16,753 bases of DNA from a virus (taxonomy: Duplodnaviria; Heunggongvirae; Uroviricota; Caudoviricetes): the IMG/VR virus record IMGVR_UViG_2778261300_000003. One strand, 5' to 3'. Position numbers and translations under genes: made by a program. Shown one piece after another: positions 3,876 through 16,753 of this stretch. The notes beneath the pieces were generated by a model that was not told where the DNA came from, made no database searches, and was given only the letters and a program-made list of their open reading frames with translations. How positions within the stretch are numbered: position 1 is the first letter of the stretch; each line of letters begins with the position of its first letter.

Positions 3876-4066
3876 TCAAATCCAACGACAGACGGCTGGC
3901 ATTTAAGTATTGTGAAATATTATCAAATGTAATCATCATTGATTTACAAAAGATACATTTTGCCCCGAAAGGATTCATGTCAGAAACATCAAAAGATGAT
4001 GTTCTATACTGGGAACCATGACAACACGGGCATCTAAAGTGAATATGGTTTGTAATATTGTCTACC

Positions 4067-4279
4067 TCAAAGCGCCACTACATGAACAGCGGCAGGACCT
4101 TTAGGTCCGTTCTCAATACCAAATTCAACTTCCTGATTCTCAGTTAATGTTTTGAAATCGTTGCTCTGAATTGCTGAGAAATGGACAAACACATCTTTGC
4201 TGCCATCTTTCGGCGTGATGAAACCAAAACCTTTTTCAGGGTTAAACCATTTCACTAAACCAGTCATTTTGTTAGACAT
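4067..4279 (-). CDS. cspI: Cold-shock protein, CspA family (CspI-like)
   Basis: ATG at 4279-4277; [53 protein letters not shown]... carries the RNP1 motif KGFGFI and RNP2 VFVHF of the cold-shock domain. Confidence 0.85.
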
Positions 4280-4640
4280 AATTATTACCTTTTGAAGAAA
4301 TTAGCCCTTGGGCAGAATGGTCCGAAAAAAATATCAGAGAGAAAAACCAACAAGGAAATCTCAAGAGGTACAAATAATAAAATTATAACAATGACTGCTT
4401 CAGATAAATTTGTAACAAACCAGAACACCATTAACGCATGATTAACCACCCATAGCAAGGATTACTTTTGTAAAGAAAAACACAGCAATGAAAGAATAGC
4501 TTTATTTATTAATAAAACGTGTCATTCTGATTAAGACCTTTTATCTTACCCTTAAGATTTCAGGAATTTTGGCTCATGGAAGAGTCCTTTTTATTTAAAT
4601 TTTACATTCCGCGATGTAAATGTTCCGATTTAATATTACC

Positions 4641-5664
<1,024 letters not shown>

Positions 5665-6670: not shown

Positions 6671-6949
6671 GATTGTGGTGCTTTTTGTGGGAGTCATCCA
6701 CTTACGCACTTTGTTTTGCCATGCCAGCAGTTAGCTTCTGCTGTAAAACTATTCATGCAGCAAACCTGCACTTCACCACAATGGTTAGCATACTTTTCCT
6801 GATTAAGATTTTGCCAAATATGCTAGCCATTGTTTCATGTATTGGACCTCCTTACTTTTTATTAAAGAGATCCAATATTCACTACTCTGTCCGTATCTCT
6901 ACTCAGGCCTCAGCCTTCTTCGTTATCGTATACAGACGAGCGATGAATT

Positions 6950-7165
6950 TTAATCAGTAATGATGACATTTGCTGCTGCAGGACCTTTAGCACCACTCTC
7001 TATAGAGAAGGTAACCTTTTGACCTTCAAATAAGGTTCGATAATTATCATTCTGAATCGCAGAAAAATGCACAAACACATCTTTACTACCATCAACAGGA
7101 GAAATAAAGCCGAAACCTTTATCAGCGTTAAACCATTTTACTAAACCAGTCATTTTATTTGACAT
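6950..7165 (-). CDS. cspB: Cold-shock protein, CspA family (CspB-like)
   Basis: ATG at 7165; [71 protein letters not shown] with RNP1/RNP2 motifs. Confidence 0.85.
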
Positions 7166-7465
7166 TCTACATTCCTTAACTTGAGCCTTTCGGCATAAAT
7201 GGTTTGCATAACAGAAACGACTTCGTACTTAATTGGAGAGACTCAAAGAAGGAATAAGTGAATAACACCTGAAATGAGAACTGCTTTAGTAAACTACTTC
7301 GTATATCGTCTGTTCTTCAAACCGACGCAATCATTAACGCATAGTTGAACATATGAAGCAATGTTTATTTTAGACATCCAGCCATCTTCAACCCCATCAA
7401 AAAACTATAGCTTTCTTCAGGAACGTGTGTATAGTGCGCCAAGTTATCAGTATTAAGGAATTTTT

Positions 7466-8070: not shown

Positions 8071-8099
8071 ATCATGTCGCCATCTTCAGCAAAAATCAT

Positions 8100-8865: not shown

Positions 8866-9915
8866 TTACGCCAGTACGCCAATTGCCAGCGCGCGATCGA
8901 TAAAACGAAATATCAGCTCCAGTTGGGAGCCATACTTATCTTCAAATGCCACTGTATCCGTATGCAGCTCGTTGTGATGCTTTCTGCACAAAGGCAACAC
9001 AAAGAGATCATGTGCTTTTGTTCCCATTCCGCCCTGCCCGTGACCAATCAGATGATGCGGATCGTCGGCTGGCATACCGCAGCAAGCACACGGCTGTGTC
9101 TTAACCCAACGTGTGTATTTCTCCTTAACCCAGCGGCGACGTTTAGGCAGCTTCATGAAAGATTCCGGAGACTCTGGATCAACGGTGATGCTTACCACCG
9201 TCTTTTCCTGTGGTGATTTTTGTTGCTGGTGGGCGTAAGGCAACGGTGCAAGATTTTTTGTGCGTTGTTTCAATATGCTGGTGGCGGTCTGCTCTCCCGG
9301 TACGATGTCGCTTTCGCGGTACACCGAGCAGATTTTTTCCGCTGGTAATCCCAGCGAACGACGCGATACAGCCTCAGGTAGTGCATCCACCACCTGATTG
9401 CAGACCGCCCACCAGGATAATTCAGCCAAAGATAATTCCCGCTCCTGCGTACCGCTTATTGCGTGACGGATGACGTCAATCACCCATGCTGTCAGATTTT
9501 GTTGAGCAAGCAGCTCCAGTGATTCCGATGTCTGGTCACGCAGTTGGTTGTCGCAGTGCCAGCACAACACCATTGCGCCGGTACCATAACGGTGAATGAC
9601 TGTTTCAGTGTGATGGTAATCGCCATTAGGCCACTGGCAGGATGTAACATGACGTAATAGCCAGTCGGACAATGCGCCAACGCCGCCAGCAGCACGAATC
9701 ACCCGTTCGTTACTAAAAAACGGCAGCAATGTTTTGTCTTCCGCCAGCGGCTGGCGAACGGCAGGAACGACTCCGGATGGCAGATTACGCATGCTTTTTG
9801 GTTCCGGTTCCACCAGCACTCGAGGATTATGAAATATCTGTATGGATTCACGGCCCGGCTTAAGGACCACCAGCCCAAGCTCAGGCACCAGAACAGGTCT
9901 AAGTAATACCCGCAC
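8866..9915 (-). CDS. YdfU-like (DUF968) protein with C-terminal Cys/His HNH-like motif
   Basis: Frame open from 9954, but the 9954 start is a GTG with no SD; a GTG at 9915 is preceded by GGAGG (4-nt spacer) and gives 349 aa. C-terminal region has CACCG...DDPHHLIGHG...HDLFVLPLCRKHHNELH, resembling HNH/zinc-finger nuclease motifs. Family name from recollection. Confidence 0.55.
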   Translation of the reverse strand: MRVLLRPVLVPELGLVVLKPGRESIQIFHNPRVLVEPEPKSMRNLPSGVVPAVRQPLAEDKTLLPFFSNERVIRAAGGVGALSDWLLRHVTSCQWPNGDYHHTETVIHRYGTGAMVLCWHCDNQLRDQTSESLELLAQQNLTAWVIDVIRHAISGTQERELSLAELSWWAVCNQVVDALPEAVSRRSLGLPAEKICSVYRESDIVPGEQTATSILKQRTKNLAPLPYAHQQQKSPQEKTVVSITVDPESPESFMKLPKRRRWVKEKYTRWVKTQPCACCGMPADDPHHLIGHGQGGMGTKAHDLFVLPLCRKHHNELHTDTVAFEDKYGSQLELIFRFIDRALAIGVLA

Positions 9916-10205
9916 GTTACCTCCAGATCCGTTGCTGGAAAGTGCGGGACGCACGTGGTGGGCGTTCGGAATAAGGCAGCCTGACAGAGATTATCCAGTG
10001 CCGATATCTTCACTCGATTAACGCCAAGCGCTCGCTGATCAACCGCGCCACCTTCATCTGTGACACGCTGAACATCGATGTTCGGGCGCTCTTTCAAAGC
10101 CCAGAATGCTTCAGTGATTAATATCGTCGCCTGCTCCTGTGTCATTCCTGGTCGACATATCCAGGCATCCAGAGCCTCACGAGCCTGTTCAGGAGTGATT
10201 TTCAT
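9699..10205 (-). CDS. rem: Rem-like protein; ORF here is 168 aa and overlaps the YdfU-like start in another frame
   Basis: ATG at 10205; N-terminal about 80 residues (MKITPEQAREALDAWICRPGMTQEQATILITEAFWALKERPNIDVQRVTDEGG...) look protein-like and Rem-like; the C-terminal half (W/C-rich, CGYYLDLFWCLSLGWW...) looks like out-of-frame translation of the ydfU 5' region. Confidence 0.45.
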   Translation of the reverse strand: MKITPEQAREALDAWICRPGMTQEQATILITEAFWALKERPNIDVQRVTDEGGAVDQRALGVNRVKISALDNLCQAALFRTPTTCVPHFPATDLEVTCGYYLDLFWCLSLGWWSLSRAVNPYRYFIILECWWNRNQKACVICHPESFLPFASRWRKTKHCCRFLVTNG

Positions 10206-10496: not shown

Positions 10497-10904
10497 ATGG
10501 ATACAAGAACCCTAGGCCAGCGAGTTCTGGCGCGACGAAAAGAATTACGCTTAACACAACGAGAAGCTGCGCGCCTCGCTGGGGTTGCTCACGTCACAAT
10601 TTCACAATGGGAAAGAGACGAAACCCAGCCAGTCGGAAAACGATTGTTTGCTTTAGCGGATGCTCTGAAGTGCTCACCTACATGGCTAATGTTTGGTGAC
10701 GAAGACAAGGCACCAGTGCCGGCACAAGAACTTCATGTGGAAACAGAGCTAACTCCCAACCACAAAGAATTGATCGAATTATTCGATGCTCTTCCATCTT
10801 CCGAGCAGGAAGCCTTGCTGTCTGAAATGCGCGCAAGAGTAGAAAACTTCAACAAACTCTTCGAAGAAATGCTTAAAGCGCGTAAAAATAAATCAATAAA
10901 ATAA
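10497..10904 (+). CDS. dicA: Prophage repressor, DicA-like (XRE-family HTH, cI analogue)
   Basis: MDTRTLGQRVLARRKELRLTQREAARLAGVAHVTISQWERDETQP... N-terminal HTH (QREAARLAGVAHVTISQWE); C-terminal SPTWLMFGDEDK...EMRARVENFNKLFEEMLKAR resembles K-12 DicA as recalled. Confidence 0.85.
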   Translation: MDTRTLGQRVLARRKELRLTQREAARLAGVAHVTISQWERDETQPVGKRLFALADALKCSPTWLMFGDEDKAPVPAQELHVETELTPNHKELIELFDALPSSEQEALLSEMRARVENFNKLFEEMLKARKNKSIK

Positions 10905-11946: not shown

Positions 11947-12004
11947 TTTCTGGTGACGTTTGGCGGTATCAGTTTTACTCCGTGACTGCTCTGCCGCCCT
12001 TTTT
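11947..12004 (+). ncRNA. dicF: DicF small RNA (ftsZ-targeting antisense sRNA)
   Basis: tttctggtgacgtttggcggtatcagttttactccgtgactgctctgccgcccttttt matches DicF as recalled; it ends in a GC stem (ggcgg...ccgcc) plus U-run and lies between ydfC and dicB. The upstream 330 nt is GC-rich and structured. Confidence 0.7.
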
Positions 12005-12173: not shown

Positions 12174-12362
12174 ATGAAAACGTTATTACCAAACGTTAAT
12201 ACGTCTGAAGGTTGTTTTGAAATTGGTGTCACTATCAGTAACCCAGTATTTACTGAAGATGCCATTAACAAGAGAAAACAAGAACGGGAGCTATTAAATA
12301 AAATATGCATTGTTTCAATGCTGGCTCGTTTACGTCTGATGCCAAAAGGATGTGCACAATGA
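12174..12362 (+). CDS. dicB: Cell-division inhibitor DicB (62 aa)
   Basis: ATG at 12174 with SD GAGGA; MKTLLPNVNTSEGCFEIGVTISNPVFTEDAINKRKQERELLNKICIVSMLARLRLMPKGCAQ matches K-12 DicB as recalled. The track ORF starts upstream at 12069. Confidence 0.85.
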   Translation: MKTLLPNVNTSEGCFEIGVTISNPVFTEDAINKRKQERELLNKICIVSMLARLRLMPKGCAQ

Positions 12363-12550
12363 ATTCAGCATTTGTGCTTGTTCTGACAGTTTTTCTTGTT
12401 TCCGGAGAGCCAGTTGATATTGCAGTCAGTGTTCACAGGACAATGCAGGAGTGTATGACTGCAGCAACCGAACAGAAAATTCCCGGTAACTGTTACCCGG
12501 TCGATAAAGTTATTCACCAGGATAATATCGAAATCCCGGCAGGTCTTTAA
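12359..12550 (+). CDS. ydfD: YdfD-like small membrane/lysis protein (63 aa)
   Basis: ATG at 12359 overlaps the dicB stop (ATGA). MNSAFVLVLTVFLVSGEPVDIAVSVHRTMQECMTAATEQKIPGNCYPVDKVIHQDNIEIPAGL with an N-terminal hydrophobic segment. Confidence 0.75.
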   Translation: MNSAFVLVLTVFLVSGEPVDIAVSVHRTMQECMTAATEQKIPGNCYPVDKVIHQDNIEIPAGL

Positions 12551-12642: not shown

Positions 12643-15114
12643 ATGAGTAAAGTCTTTATTTGCGCCGCTATTCCTGACGAACTGGCAACAAGGGAAGAAG
12701 GCGCTGTGGCTGTAGCCACAGCCATTGAAGCTGGCGACGAACGCCGTGCTCGAGCAAAATTTCACTGGCAATTCCTGGAACATTATCCGGCTGCTCAGGA
12801 CTGCGCTTATAAATTTATTGTCTGCGAGGATAAACCTGGCATACCCCGCCCTGCCCTCGATTCATGGGATGCTGAATATATGCAGGAAAACCGCTGGGAT
12901 GAGGAGTCTGCTTCTTTTGTCCCGGTTGAGACTGAATCCGATCCGATGAACGTCACTTTTGACAAGCTGGCCCCTGAAGTACAGAACGCTGTCATGGTTA
13001 AGTTCGACACATGTGAAAACATCACCGTTGATATGGTTATTAGCGCACAGGAATTGTTGCAGGAAGACATGGCAACATTCGACGGACATATCGTTGAAGC
13101 GTTGATGAAAATGCCAGAAGTTAACGCCATGTATCCGGAGCTTAAGTTGCACGCCATTGGGTGGGTTAAGCATAAATGTATTCCTGGTGCTAAATGGCCC
13201 GAAATTCAGGCAGAGATGCGCATCTGGAAAAAACGTCGCGAAGGTGAACGCAAGGAAACCGGAAAATACACGTCTGTTGTTGATCTCGCCCGCGCCAGAG
13301 CCAATCAACAGTACACTGAAAATTCAACAGGAAAAATCAGCCCGGTCATTGCTGCCATTCATCGCGAATACAAGCAGACATGGAAAACACTGGATGACGA
13401 ACTGGCCTACGCTCTCTGGCCTAGTGATGTGGATGCCGGAAACATTGACGGCAGCATCCATCGCTGGGCAAAAAAAGAAGTTATCGACAACGACCGCGAA
13501 GACTGGAAGCGTATCTCGGCATCAATGCGCAAACAGCCTGATGCCCTTCGCTACGACCGCCAAACTATTTTTGGCCTTGTCCGTGAGCGTCCGATCGACA
13601 TTCACAAAGATCCCGTAGCACTGAACAAATATATCTGCGAATACCTGACGACAAAGGGCGTGTTTGAGAATGAAGAAACAGACCTGGGCACTGTTGATGT
13701 TCTCCAGTCATCAGAAACACAAACTGATGCAGTGGAAACTGAGGTATCTGATATCCCAAAAAATGAAACCGCGCCGGAAGCTGAACCATCTGTAGAGCGT
13801 GAGGGGCCGTTCTATTTCCTCTTCGCAGATAAGGACGGAGAAAAATACGGTCGCGCAAACAAACTCTCTGGTCTGGATAAGGCACTGGCTGCTGGCGCCA
13901 CTGAAATCACAAAAGAAGAATATTTTGCCCGAAAAAATGGCACATACACGGGCTTACCGCAAAATGTAGATACCGCTGAAGATTCAGAACAACCAGAGCC
14001 GATAAAAGTTACCGCTGACGAAGTAAACAAAATTATGCAGGCAGCCAATATCAGCCAGCCTGACGCCGATAAGTTGCTTGCTGCATCACGTGGTGAATTT
14101 GTTGAAGGGATTAGTGACCCGAATGATCCGAAATGGGTTAAGGGGCTCCAGACCCGCGATTCTGTGAACCAGAACCAGCATGAATCGGAACGGAACTACC
14201 AAAAAGCGGAACAAAACAGTCCAAATGCGTTACAAAACGAGCCAGAAACGAAACAGCCTGAACCAGTAGCGCAACAGGAAGTGGAAAAAGTCTGCACCGC
14301 CTGCGGTCAGACCGGCGGCGGCAACTGCCCTGATTGTGGCGCGGTGATGGGCGACGCAACATACCAAGAAACATTCGATGAAGAGTATCAGGTTGAAGTT
14401 CAGGAAGATGATCCGGAGGAAATGGAAGGCGCTGAACATCCACACAAGGAGAACACTGGCGGCAATCAGCATCACAATAGCGATAATGAAACTGGCGAGA
14501 CGGCAGATCACCCAATTAAGGTGAACGGTCATCACGAAATCACATCCACCAGCAGGACGTGTGACCATCTAATGATCGACCTTGAAACCATGGGAAAAAA
14601 TCCTGATGCCCCGATCATCTCAATAGGTGCAATATTTTTCGATCCGCAAACCGGAGATATGGGACCGGAATTTAGTAAGACTATCGATCTGGAAACTGCT
14701 GGCGGAGTCATTGATCGGGACACCATTAAATGGTGGCTTAAGCAATCACGCGAAGCGCAATCTGCCATTATGACCGATGAAATCCCGTTAGATGATGCAC
14801 TGTTACAATTGCGAGAATTTATCGACGAAAACTCCGGTGAATTTTTTGTTCAGGTTTGGGGAAATGGAGCCAACTTCGACAACACGATTTTGCGCCGTTC
14901 ATACGAACGGCAGGGGATCCCCTGCCCGTGGCGTTACTACAACGATCGCGATGTACGCACAATCGTTGAGCTGGGGAAAGCCATAGACTTCGATGCCAGA
15001 ACGGCTATTCCATTCGAAGGTGAGCGCCATAATGCACTTGATGACGCCCGTTACCAGGCAAAATACGTTTCAGTTATCTGGCAAAAACTGATCCCGAGTC
15101 AGGCTGATTCTTAA
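12643..15114 (+). CDS. Large exonuclease: RecE/YdfE-like N-terminal region and zinc-ribbon linker fused to a C-terminal DEDDh (DnaQ-like) 3'-5' exonuclease domain (823 aa)
   Basis: ATG at 12643 with GAGG upstream (track start 12607 is a TTG). CTACGQTGGGNCPDCG zinc ribbon around 14294-14340. C-terminal domain (about 14560-15114) carries Exo I MIDLETMG, Exo II WGNGANFD and Exo III HNALDDARY motifs, read directly from the translation. The N-terminal two thirds resemble the Rac RecE N-terminal region and K-12 YdfE as recalled. Confidence 0.8.
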   Translation: MSKVFICAAIPDELATREEGAVAVATAIEAGDERRARAKFHWQFLEHYPAAQDCAYKFIVCEDKPGIPRPALDSWDAEYMQENRWDEESASFVPVETESDPMNVTFDKLAPEVQNAVMVKFDTCENITVDMVISAQELLQEDMATFDGHIVEALMKMPEVNAMYPELKLHAIGWVKHKCIPGAKWPEIQAEMRIWKKRREGERKETGKYTSVVDLARARANQQYTENSTGKISPVIAAIHREYKQTWKTLDDELAYALWPSDVDAGNIDGSIHRWAKKEVIDNDREDWKRISASMRKQPDALRYDRQTIFGLVRERPIDIHKDPVALNKYICEYLTTKGVFENEETDLGTVDVLQSSETQTDAVETEVSDIPKNETAPEAEPSVEREGPFYFLFADKDGEKYGRANKLSGLDKALAAGATEITKEEYFARKNGTYTGLPQNVDTAEDSEQPEPIKVTADEVNKIMQAANISQPDADKLLAASRGEFVEGISDPNDPKWVKGLQTRDSVNQNQHESERNYQKAEQNSPNALQNEPETKQPEPVAQQEVEKVCTACGQTGGGNCPDCGAVMGDATYQETFDEEYQVEVQEDDPEEMEGAEHPHKENTGGNQHHNSDNETGETADHPIKVNGHHEITSTSRTCDHLMIDLETMGKNPDAPIISIGAIFFDPQTGDMGPEFSKTIDLETAGGVIDRDTIKWWLKQSREAQSAIMTDEIPLDDALLQLREFIDENSGEFFVQVWGNGANFDNTILRRSYERQGIPCPWRYYNDRDVRTIVELGKAIDFDARTAIPFEGERHNALDDARYQAKYVSVIWQKLIPSQADS

Positions 15115-15186: not shown

Positions 15187-15438
15187 ATGAGCGAAGTAAT
15201 CATGATTGTCTCTCCCGGCAAATGGGTATCCGAAGAGCAGTTAATTGCGCTGAAAGGAATAAAAAAAGGTACGTTAAAAAAGGCCCGGGAAAAATCGTTT
15301 ATGGAAGGAAGGGAATATAAGCATGTCGCTCATGACGGTATGCCATGGGATAACAGTCCATGCTTTTACAACCTGGAAGAAATTGATCGCTGGATTGAGC
15401 GCCAGGCATCAGCGAGACCAAGACGTCATCTTACTTGA
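15187..15438 (+). CDS. Excisionase-like protein (lambda Xis family)
   Basis: MSEVIMIVSPGKWVSEEQLIALKGIKKGTLKKAREKSFMEGREYKHVAHDGMPWDNSPCFYNLEEIDRWIERQ... The GREY..H segment resembles the lambda Xis winged-helix core; it sits immediately upstream of the integrase. Confidence 0.55.
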   Translation: MSEVIMIVSPGKWVSEEQLIALKGIKKGTLKKAREKSFMEGREYKHVAHDGMPWDNSPCFYNLEEIDRWIERQASARPRRHLT

Positions 15439-15472
15439 CTAAAAGCCACACTAACTAATGAGAGAAGTTGAA

Positions 15473-16753
15473 ATGAAATATCCGACAGGCGTGGAAAACC
15501 ATGGAGGGAAATTACGTATCTGGTTTGTTTATAAAGACGTAAGAGTCAGGGAAAATCTGGGGGTTCCTGACACAGCAAAAAACAGGCGCGTTGCAGGTGA
15601 ACTACGCTCCTCTGTTTGTTACGCAATAAAAACTGGTGTTTTCGACTATGCAAAACAGTTTCCCTCCTCACGCAATCTGGAAAAATTTGGTGAGGCCCGA
15701 CAAGATTTAACCATAAAAGAACTGGCTGAAAAATTTCTGGCACTGAAAGAAACTGAAGTCGCCAAAACATCACTCAACACATACCGTGCCGTCATCAAAA
15801 ATATCCTGAGCATAATCGGTGAAAAAAATCTTGCCTCATCGATTAATAAAGAAAAATTACTGGAGGTTCGTAAAGAGTTACTGACTGGATACCAGATCCC
15901 CAAAAGTAACTATATTGTTACACAACCAGGGAGATCGGCTGTAACTGTAAATAATTACATGACAAATCTTAACGCCGTGTTCCAGTTTGGTGTTGATAAC
16001 GGTTACCTGGCAGATAATCCGTTTAAGGGGATCTCGCCATTAAAGGAATCAAGAACCATTCCGGATCCTCTTTCGCGGGAAGAATTTATCCGTCTTATCG
16101 ATGCGTGCAGAAATCAGCAAGCAAAAAATTTATGGTGTGTTTCTGTTTATACTGGAGTTCGCCCTGGTGAGCTGTGTGCACTTGGATGGGAGGACATAGA
16201 TCTGAAAAATGGAACAATGATGATCAGGAGAAATTTAGCAAAAGACCGTTTCACGGTACCAAAAACACAGGCGGGAACCAATCGGGTCATTCATCTTATT
16301 AAGCCAGCAATCGACGCTCTCCGGAGTCAGATGACATTAACGAGACTGAGCAAAGAGCATATCATTGATGTTCACCTCAGAGAGTATGGCAGAACAGAAA
16401 AACAAAAATGCACCTTTGTTTTTCAACCTGAAGTGTCAGCGAGAGTAAAAAATTATGGTGACCATTTTACCGTTGACTCAATAAGGCAGATGTGGGACGC
16501 AGCGATAAAACGTGCCGGACTCCGCCATCGAAAATCATATCAGTCGAGACATACTTATGCCTGCTGGTCGCTGACAGCTGGTGCTAACCCGGCATTTATA
16601 GCAAACCAGATGGGCCATGCAGATGCGCAAATGGTATTTCAGGTATACGGAAAATGGATGTCTGAAAACAATAATGCACAGGTAGCTTTGTTAAATACAC
16701 AGTTAAGCGAGTTTGCCCCAACCATGCCCCATAACGAAGCAATGAAAAATTAA
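15473..16753 (+). CDS. Tyrosine-type site-specific integrase (phage integrase family), 426 aa
   Basis: ATG at 15473 (an upstream ATG at 15458 lacks an SD). Catalytic-domain signatures: TGVRPGELCALGWEDIDL, RHTYACWSLTAGANPAFIANQMGHAD, VYGKW (catalytic Tyr region). Stop TAA is the last three bases of the window. Confidence 0.9.
   Translation: MKYPTGVENHGGKLRIWFVYKDVRVRENLGVPDTAKNRRVAGELRSSVCYAIKTGVFDYAKQFPSSRNLEKFGEARQDLTIKELAEKFLALKETEVAKTSLNTYRAVIKNILSIIGEKNLASSINKEKLLEVRKELLTGYQIPKSNYIVTQPGRSAVTVNNYMTNLNAVFQFGVDNGYLADNPFKGISPLKESRTIPDPLSREEFIRLIDACRNQQAKNLWCVSVYTGVRPGELCALGWEDIDLKNGTMMIRRNLAKDRFTVPKTQAGTNRVIHLIKPAIDALRSQMTLTRLSKEHIIDVHLREYGRTEKQKCTFVFQPEVSARVKNYGDHFTVDSIRQMWDAAIKRAGLRHRKSYQSRHTYACWSLTAGANPAFIANQMGHADAQMVFQVYGKWMSENNNAQVALLNTQLSEFAPTMPHNEAMKN

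Follow-up and report, generated by a model that had tools for sequence, protein, structure and literature searches.

A predicted DEDDh exonuclease domain on a RecE/YdfE-type scaffold in Escherichia coli lambdoid prophages without an annealase partner

The IMG/VR virus record IMGVR_UViG_2778261300_000003, a stretch of 16,753 nucleotides analysed here as a whole and called the window, carries a complete 823-codon gene on the + strand (12643..15114; ATG at 12643, TAA at 15112-15114). There are no internal stops in this open reading frame (ORF). The encoded protein of 823 amino acids (aa) joins an N-terminal scaffold of the RecE/YdfE type to a C-terminal domain that is predicted to be a 3'-5' exonuclease of the DEDDh class, at the place where Rac RecE has a PD-(D/E)XK nuclease. 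The gene, called exo below, provides the nuclease of the early left operon in a widespread class of lambdoid prophages of E. coli, in which neither an annealase nor an anti-RecBCD function is encoded. Qin-type prophages and the phages Tritos and PhiR42_1 are examples of this class.

The identical protein is RefSeq WP_000048342.1. The ydfE pseudogene of K-12 corresponds to the first 256 codons of exo, with 100% identity, and is truncated by IS2. The exo gene is the intact form of K-12 ydfE. The K-12 product has neither the hinge nor the nuclease domain described below, and because of this truncation the K-12 literature is silent on the intact protein. The protein is already represented in databases, as the RefSeq entry, in the Pfam families YdfE_N and YdfE_C, in PHROG 2082, and in phage Tritos, and DnaQ-type nucleases in lambdoid phages have already been published (Zheng et al. 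2025, PMC12315714). The main text of that paper does not describe the fusion of a DEDDh domain to the scaffold or a cassette exchange with RecE and RecT. In the searchable literature, nothing was found on the RecE-scaffold fusion, on a reciprocal swap with RecE and RecT, or on dominance over RecET in E. coli.

The C-Terminal Nuclease Domain

The DEDDh domain (DnaQ-like, Rv2179c-like/DexA-like) covers aa 644-823 (14572..15111, + strand). A preliminary description, made from the letters alone, had recognized three DnaQ-like motifs, and all of them lie where it placed them: MIDLETMG at aa 644-651 (nt 14572-14595), WGNGANFD at aa 739-746 (nt 14857-14880), and HNALDDARY at aa 796-804 (nt 15028-15054). 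The profile search it had proposed gave the expected family. PF16473 (Rv2179c-like) matches aa 642-813 over profile positions 2-177 of 177, with E=2.4e-67 and 226.5 bits against a cut-off of 27. The RNase_T family matches the domain weakly. No PD-(D/E)XK family, PF12684 included, matches the 823-aa protein in the Pfam search.

The sole sequence match obtained with phmmer in the PDB is T4 DexA (8KEL/8KEN, E=1.5e-6). The predicted catalytic residues D646, E648, D746, H796, and D801 align to D7, E9, D119, H186, and D191 of DexA, and all five are invariant across the alignments with DexA and the stand-alone homologues. The AlphaFold2 (AF2) model of aa 623-823 (pLDDT 86.2, pTM 0.83) shows the RNase H-like alpha/beta fold typical of DEDD exonucleases, not the PD-(D/E)XK fold of RecE. 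Its top Foldseek match is again T4 DexA (8KEL, E=8.5e-12, TM-score 0.71), followed by RNase T, a Cas2-associated DnaQ domain, REXO2, and Orn. Since Pfam, the sole PDB match, the invariant catalytic residues, and the AF2 and Foldseek results agree, the assignment of this predicted domain to the DEDDh class is secure. We infer that the protein is probably a Mg2+-dependent 3'-to-5' exonuclease acting on DNA.

The best-matching Pfam family is named for a 3'-5' exoribonuclease, which raises the alternative that the protein trims or degrades RNA during induction, such as the DicF precursor, the operon transcripts, or host RNAs. Mycobacterium tuberculosis Rv2179c, a stand-alone chromosomal exoribonuclease, belongs to the same family (PF16473), whose profile the window domain matches over its full length. 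RNase T, Orn, and REXO2 are structural neighbours, and the small RNA (sRNA) DicF is encoded in the same operon. However, Rv2179c was not detected by the phmmer search of the PDB and is thus more distant than DexA, the nearest characterized relative in both sequence and fold, which is a DNA exonuclease. Moreover, the close stand-alone homologues lie in DNA recombination or replication modules, and the domain substitutes for a DNA exonuclease on the RecE scaffold. An exoribonuclease like Rv2179c is considered improbable.

The Scaffold and the Junction

The scaffold consists of several modules. The YdfE_N module, aa 1-261 (12643..13425, +), is an alpha/beta head followed by a helical subdomain and corresponds to PF27430 in the precomputed Pfam annotation. 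Another helical subdomain, aa 262-350 (13426..13692, +; pLDDT 75-93), is common to Rac RecE aa 278-365. An acidic low-complexity linker with a small domain at about aa 386-440 forms aa 351-453 (13693..14001, +), which vary among alleles. The conserved hinge, aa 454-622 (14002..14508, +), is the core of YdfE_C and contains a zinc ribbon (CTAC at aa 551-554, 14293-14304; CPDC at aa 562-565, 14326-14337; +) and an acidic tail that ends in ETGETAD (aa 616-622). The precomputed Pfam annotation of the identical protein, which uses a newer Pfam release and is the source of the YdfE_N and YdfE_C calls, lists YdfE_N (PF27430), YdfE_C (PF27432), and the Rv2179c-like domain.

The N-terminal ~640 residues had been likened to RecE and YdfE as a whole. 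This similarity holds for aa 262-622 with respect to RecE and for aa 1-256 with respect to YdfE, but not for aa 1-261 with respect to Rac RecE, whose N-terminus is PF06630. The YdfE_N region, aa 1-261, shows no BLASTP similarity to Rac RecE, and Pfam gives no match to PF06630 (Exonuc_VIII). The central region is homologous (RecE 278-588 to aa 262-622), including the zinc ribbon and the acidic tail. With BLASTP against K-12 RecE, aa 262-627 align to RecE 278-592 (2e-61, 39% identity overall), and the alignment is nearly identical at ~aa 470-622, including the zinc ribbon that the preliminary description had regarded as common to both proteins. The NCBIfam RecE equivalog NF007259 is matched at model positions 271-600 of 877 only, and the score of 281.6 bits is below the cut-off of 1269.

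At the DNA level, the hinge is homologous to Rac recE (78-89% nucleotide identity) and to all scaffold variants compared, and recombination breakpoints are found at both of its ends. DNA homology to Rac recE ends at nucleotide 1867 of the gene (window 14509), after codon 622, which corresponds to recE codon 588. This is directly after the ETGE(T/V)AD segment, as had been suggested. The homology ends immediately 3' of ...GAAACTGGCGA....GCAGATC. According to a review (PMC11611040), the nuclease domain of RecE comprises residues 564-866, and no function is known for the N-terminal region of the protein. The junction thus lies near the RecE nuclease-domain boundary, and the two proteins have the same domain boundary at ~RecE residue 588.

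From the junction, a linker of 21 residues (aa 623-643, 14509..14571) leads to the nuclease domain and ends in DHL. The stand-alone homologues begin MNHLMIDLETMG (MNHL start). One of them, gp34 of epsilon34, a DnaQ nuclease of a P22-like Rec module, is 55.9% identical over aa 641-816. Over the whole nuclease domain, epsilon34 gp34 and Bas106_0031 are 56-58% identical to the window protein, and they start with MNHLM(I/V)DLETMG where the window protein has DHLMIDLETMG. This agreement between DHL and MNHL is the trace expected if a whole stand-alone gene had been fused onto the scaffold.

Exchange of Nuclease Cassettes

A search with aa 1-640 revealed proteins of 900 aa that are 97% identical over this region and in which PF12684 replaces PF16473. 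Their loci have the order dicB-ydfD-[scaffold+PD-(D/E)XK]-RecT-Lar-DUF1187-xisR-intR-ttcA, which is the right arm of Rac. Between exo and the gene for the YdfE scaffold with PD-(D/E)XK, DNA identity is 92%, and the homology likewise stops at nucleotide 1867. The opposite combination is found in phage vB_EcoS-813R8. There, a DEDDh domain follows an N-terminus of genuine RecE type, with 59% identity to RecE aa 50-591, and the gene is 98% identical in DNA to exo from aa 444 to the end, followed by xis and int. Because the YdfE scaffold with PD-(D/E)XK and the RecE-type N-terminus with DEDDh both exist, each N-terminal module pairs with each C-terminal cassette, and these reciprocal pairings indicate that the nuclease is an exchangeable cassette. 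On the evidence of these DNA comparisons, nuclease cassettes have been swapped between prophages by recombination in the conserved hinge.

A second breakpoint is located near aa 453/454. In the comparison with the L025 allele, synonymous divergence (dS) rises from 0.006-0.018 upstream of this point to 0.26 in the hinge and to 0.90 in the nuclease domain.

An exhaustive search among 1.84 billion cluster representatives yielded scaffold matches in 149 clusters only. About 53 are long scaffold clusters (50%-identity representatives); 10 carry DEDDh, 16 carry PD-(D/E)XK, and ~26 have no recognizable nuclease. The named members ending in DEDDh are from Escherichia, Citrobacter, and Kluyvera. The group without a nuclease (~26) resembles the "RecE-2" proteins, which were found without a nuclease domain (Zheng et al. 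2025, PMC12315714). Even a profile made from distant relatives of the scaffold, intended to deepen the alignment for the structure model, picked up almost nothing but E. coli fragments.

In around half of the long scaffold relatives, the C-terminal 300-400 residues match nothing in Pfam (the set of P0324, P0298, P0291, P0364, P0354, and P0390). An example is an 814-aa protein of Salmonella bongori named 'RecE family'. One Enterobacter protein has the composition YdfE_N+YdfE_C+PF17762. The scaffold therefore occurs also with C-termini that are unknown or not nucleases. In two further forms, P0055 (214 aa) and P0070 (261 aa), in-frame internal deletions join the YdfE N-terminus to part of the DEDDh domain. 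These deletion forms were seen on 19 long contigs, the longest of 995 kb, and they may be functional mini-proteins or decay products.

An Early Left Operon without Annealase

The exo gene is surrounded by a Qin-type lambdoid prophage adjoining rspB. The gene order is dicC / dicA-like repressor, ydfA, ydfB, ydfC, DicF sRNA, dicB, ydfD, exo, xis, and int. Directly downstream of exo lies the excisionase gene xis (DUF1233; 15187-15438, +), followed by the tyrosine integrase gene int (15458-16753, +), with no recT between. The arrangement noticed at the outset, xis and int directly after the nuclease and no RecT- or Bet-like annealase, recurs in the related loci. Directly after the DEDDh form come xis and int at each of the attachment sites rspB, ompW, and potC, where three different integrases are encoded. 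The window lacks an annealase, and so do 10 other contexts with the identical protein. RecT, Erf, Bet, Sak, Sak4, and single-stranded DNA-binding protein (SSB) were not detected by Pfam on the larger window ORFs or in the precomputed Pfam annotation of all genes of 17 related loci. The gene tables of the rspB, ompW, and potC loci contain none of these and no Gam or Abc2, and the complete genomes of PhiR42_1 and Tritos contain no annealase, SSB, Gam, or Abc2. RecT was seen only beside the PD-(D/E)XK cassette. A PD-(D/E)XK fold in the C-terminal domain, a lack of similarity to RecE/YdfE, and a flanking recT or bet gene had been named beforehand as observations that would contradict the preliminary description; none of the three was found.

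Rac recE occupies the same place in the early left operon upstream of xis and int, but it has PD-(D/E)XK (PF12684) and an adjacent RecT, and exo has neither. RecE acts with 5'-3' polarity, whereas the DEDDh domain is expected to have the opposite polarity, 3'-5'. The nucleases of epsilon34 and Bas106 are also encoded in lambdoid early left operons. They are stand-alone proteins of ~180 aa located between SSB and Abc2 and beside the Sak4 annealase in P22-like Rec modules, whereas the window domain is joined to 640 aa of RecE-type scaffold, and its operon does not have the annealase, SSB, and anti-RecBCD genes that are adjacent in those phages. Other stand-alone homologues adjoin helicase, nuclease, and primase genes. 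In Tritos, the gene recurs as TRITO_27, with 99.0% aa identity and an unchanged gene order of dicB-ydfD-exo-xis-int. Tritos is Chi-rich and has no annealase (single-strand annealing protein, SAP), SSB, or anti-RecBCD function.

The absence of a recombination partner is one of the points that favour an early lytic anti-defence nuclease, which would destroy host-immunity nucleic acids with free 3' ends, such as retron multicopy single-stranded DNA, complementary DNA of defence-associated reverse transcriptases, or linear oligonucleotide signals. The early position beside the host-takeover genes dicB and DicF fits this function, and the predicted polarity and the small-substrate relatives Orn and REXO2 are compatible with it. 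On the other hand, the protein has no similarity to a known anti-defence protein, and anti-defence does not explain why the cassette alternates with RecE and RecT on the same scaffold. Such a function is rather improbable.

Abundance and Selection

With megablast, a partial match to exo was found in 4800 of 5426 complete E. coli genomes, and a match of at least 80% of its length in 3537. Many complete chromosomes are 100% identical, and the gene is annotated there as "exonuclease" or "3'-5' exonuclease". In the index of a public assembly collection, 6079 blocks contain exactly this protein. DNA of the DEDDh cassette (window 14510-15114) is present at 8098 places in 4069 of the complete genomes, and that of the Rac recE nuclease with recT at 1841 places in 1750. 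Phage genome records with the gene at 99-100% identity are PhiR42_1 (host ECOR13), HannyBb, and Tritos.

The ratio of nonsynonymous to synonymous substitutions (dN/dS), computed between alleles with dS of 0.2-0.9, is 0.14 for YdfE_N, 0.17 for aa 262-350, 0.25 for aa 351-453, 0.33 for the hinge, and 0.18-0.23 for the DEDDh domain. The gene is under purifying selection. This bears on the possibility that exo has no function and persists as a relic in a cryptic prophage only through hitch-hiking, as the heavy deletion of the window prophage and the break of the K-12 copy by IS2 could suggest. A relic is very hard to reconcile with an intact ORF, invariant catalytic residues, dN/dS of 0.14-0.33 in all segments, nearly or fully identical genes in the named phage records, and so many exact copies of the protein in the assembly collection. 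It is the least probable explanation by far.

The records PV340562, ON470619, and OV696610 name the gene 'exodeoxyribonuclease VIII' or 'exonuclease VIII, ds DNA exonuclease', the latter being the label in the Tritos record. Given the missing PD-(D/E)XK domain, these names look like a misannotation that has spread from record to record.

Chi Sites

The window contains 6 Chi octamers (GCTGGTGG), versus 0.36 expected from shuffles, at 5243, 9225, 9277, 9810, 9867, and 14546. The last one (GCTGGTGG, 14546..14553, - strand) is inside exo, 37 nt past the junction, and Chi is also found at the matching position in Tritos, PhiR42_1, and 813R8. Two closely spaced, oppositely oriented Chi pairs lie within ydfU. 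Tritos has 9 Chi sites on the top strand and 2 on the bottom strand. It is the prototype of the "nuclease only" type, which has no annealase, SSB, or anti-RecBCD function and whose four members are all Chi-rich (Zheng et al. 2025, PMC12315714). As a general rule, Chi abundance was rejected; it holds for Tritos and the window and fails for PhiR42_1. The Chi association of these phages is suggestive, not firm.

Comparison with T4 DexA

The window domain and T4 DexA have the DEDDh catalytic residues at the same positions. DexA differs in being a stand-alone protein of 227 aa with extra loops, and identity is ~26%. The DexA residues W152 and D169, which are proposed to recognize 5-hydroxymethylcytosine (5hmC), are not conserved and correspond to Y766 and A780 in the window protein.

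DexA being the closest solved structure, exo could encode a prophage defence nuclease of the HREX type, in which a DexA homologue attacks the 5hmC-modified DNA of T-even phages that superinfect the cell and leaves host DNA intact. Kang et al. (2025, PMC12153337) report digestion of T4 DNA and protection of cells by EcD, a DexA homologue from E. coli, and in their survey the commonest bacterial carriers were Escherichia and Citrobacter. Scaffold-DEDDh fusions are found in these two genera. The survival of an intact gene within a heavily deleted prophage would also fit a defence function. However, EcD differs from the window protein, since the start encoded by its cloning primers is MIDTET..., and none of the proteins compared matches EcD. 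The two substitutions at the proposed 5hmC-recognition residues also speak against HREX. The tetramer-forming aspartate D90, whose loss marks HREX proteins, is kept as D718 and S87 corresponds to P715, in a segment where the alignment is less certain. HREX membership was rejected on the signature residues W152, D169, and D90.

A known defence system was likewise rejected, as PADLOC gave just a weak match to a generic Cas-associated DEDDh (E=1.8e-5). Defence genes are normally expressed in the lysogen. By contrast, exo is the last gene before xis and int in a repressor-controlled early left operon, and a consensus scan found no sigma-70-like site on the + strand between dicA and exo, which is weak negative evidence. 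Finally, a defence function leaves the 640-aa RecE-type scaffold and the swap with RecE and RecT unexplained. A nuclease of the HREX type is considered unlikely.

In one strain, a Qin-type prophage (L017:1-727) with an identical exo gene carries KwaA/KwaB (Kiwa defence) and QueH by the replication region.

Proposed Function

With moderate confidence, the features of the protein and its operon are read as pointing to a DNA 3'-5' exonuclease that trims 3' tails for a phage relying on host RecBCD and RecA, not on single-strand annealing. The operon is repressed by DicA, and exo would be expressed from it following induction, in lytic growth. The scaffold would bring the DEDDh nuclease to the target of the RecE nuclease, which is most likely to be linear phage DNA at its ends or an intermediate of replication or recombination. 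There, 3' strands would be removed rather than exposed, and for this reason an annealase could not be fed and would be unneeded. The 3' tails would be trimmed or blunted so that host RecBCD and RecA could recombine at phage Chi sites.

Several points weigh against this proposal. DnaQ-like 3'-5' nucleases in lambdoid Rec modules were reported as new and puzzling, because 3'-5' exonucleases usually inhibit, and do not promote, recombination (Zheng et al. 2025, PMC12315714). The Chi link is uneven, since PhiR42_1, with only 6 sites in 48.7 kb, lies below the E. coli average. The namesake of PF16473 is an exoribonuclease, so by sequence the substrate may be either DNA or RNA. Expression only upon induction rests on the operon position and on the known behaviour of dicBF. 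The model of the scaffold has a pLDDT of 68 and no PDB match. A search of the literature found no work on the intact protein; 19 papers mention YdfE in passing, none of them in the title or abstract.

A wider proposal is offered tentatively. The N-terminal region of the RecE family may be an autonomous targeting platform that is independent of the nuclease attached to it. It occurs with a 5'-3' PD-(D/E)XK enzyme accompanied by RecT, with an unaccompanied 3'-5' DEDDh enzyme, and with no recognizable nuclease. The DEDDh form, which is the commonest RecE-like gene in E. coli, would then define a second, annealase-independent route of end processing, by which lambdoid phages with neither Gam nor an annealase could cooperate with host RecBCD and Chi.

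The Surrounding Prophage

The early left operon is headed by a gene for a DicA/CI-like helix-turn-helix repressor (10497..10904, +). Upstream of exo in the same operon, DicF sRNA is located at 11948..11999 (+; Rfam 76.7 bits, E=9.5e-16), followed by dicB (12174-12362, +) and ydfD/DUF1482 (12359-12550, +). The dicB and ydfD genes precede the exonuclease gene in all related loci examined.

The window prophage is heavily deleted. Most head genes and the whole replication/relBE/hokD region are gone, and exo is intact. A scrap of a tail-fibre gene (1-109) and the major capsid E gene (325-1353, -) abut a Nu1 fragment (1530-1979, -). The ydfU gene (8866-9954, -) is fused to dicC near 10004-10006, with the loss of the replication, relBE, hokD, and flxA region of PhiR42_1, and an ORF of 168 aa (9699-10205, -) crosses this deletion junction. 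The segment 10327-10824, which contains the operator and the 5' part of the dicA-like gene, has no megablast similarity to PhiR42_1 or K-12 Qin, whereas both of its flanks are 98-99% identical to them. This indicates that the immunity region was replaced. Rfam also detected two cspA-type thermoregulator leaders, at 4040-4424 (-) and 6934-7326 (-), which belong to prophage cold-shock genes.

Implications

In phage and prophage records, the DEDDh gene often bears the label "exodeoxyribonuclease VIII", but its product lacks the nuclease domain of RecE and is likely to have the opposite polarity. In complete E. coli genomes, the DEDDh cassette outnumbers true recE-recT ~4.4:1 (8098 versus 1841 copies). 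The "bacterial DexA homologues" proposed as defence may include such prophage genes, as judged from the overlap in genera.

For the RecE family, the exchange of cassettes bears on the scaffold. The RecE nuclease domain is sufficient for recombineering, and full-length RecE helps only linear-linear recombination (review PMC11611040). That one scaffold carries nucleases of predicted opposite polarity, or none, argues that the scaffold has a role of its own, and the natural swaps supply matched alleles for probing the N-terminal two-thirds of RecE. For the Chi-rich lambdoid phages with poor Rec modules described in 2025, the DEDDh nuclease provides a candidate function for the sole DNA-metabolism gene in their early left operon.

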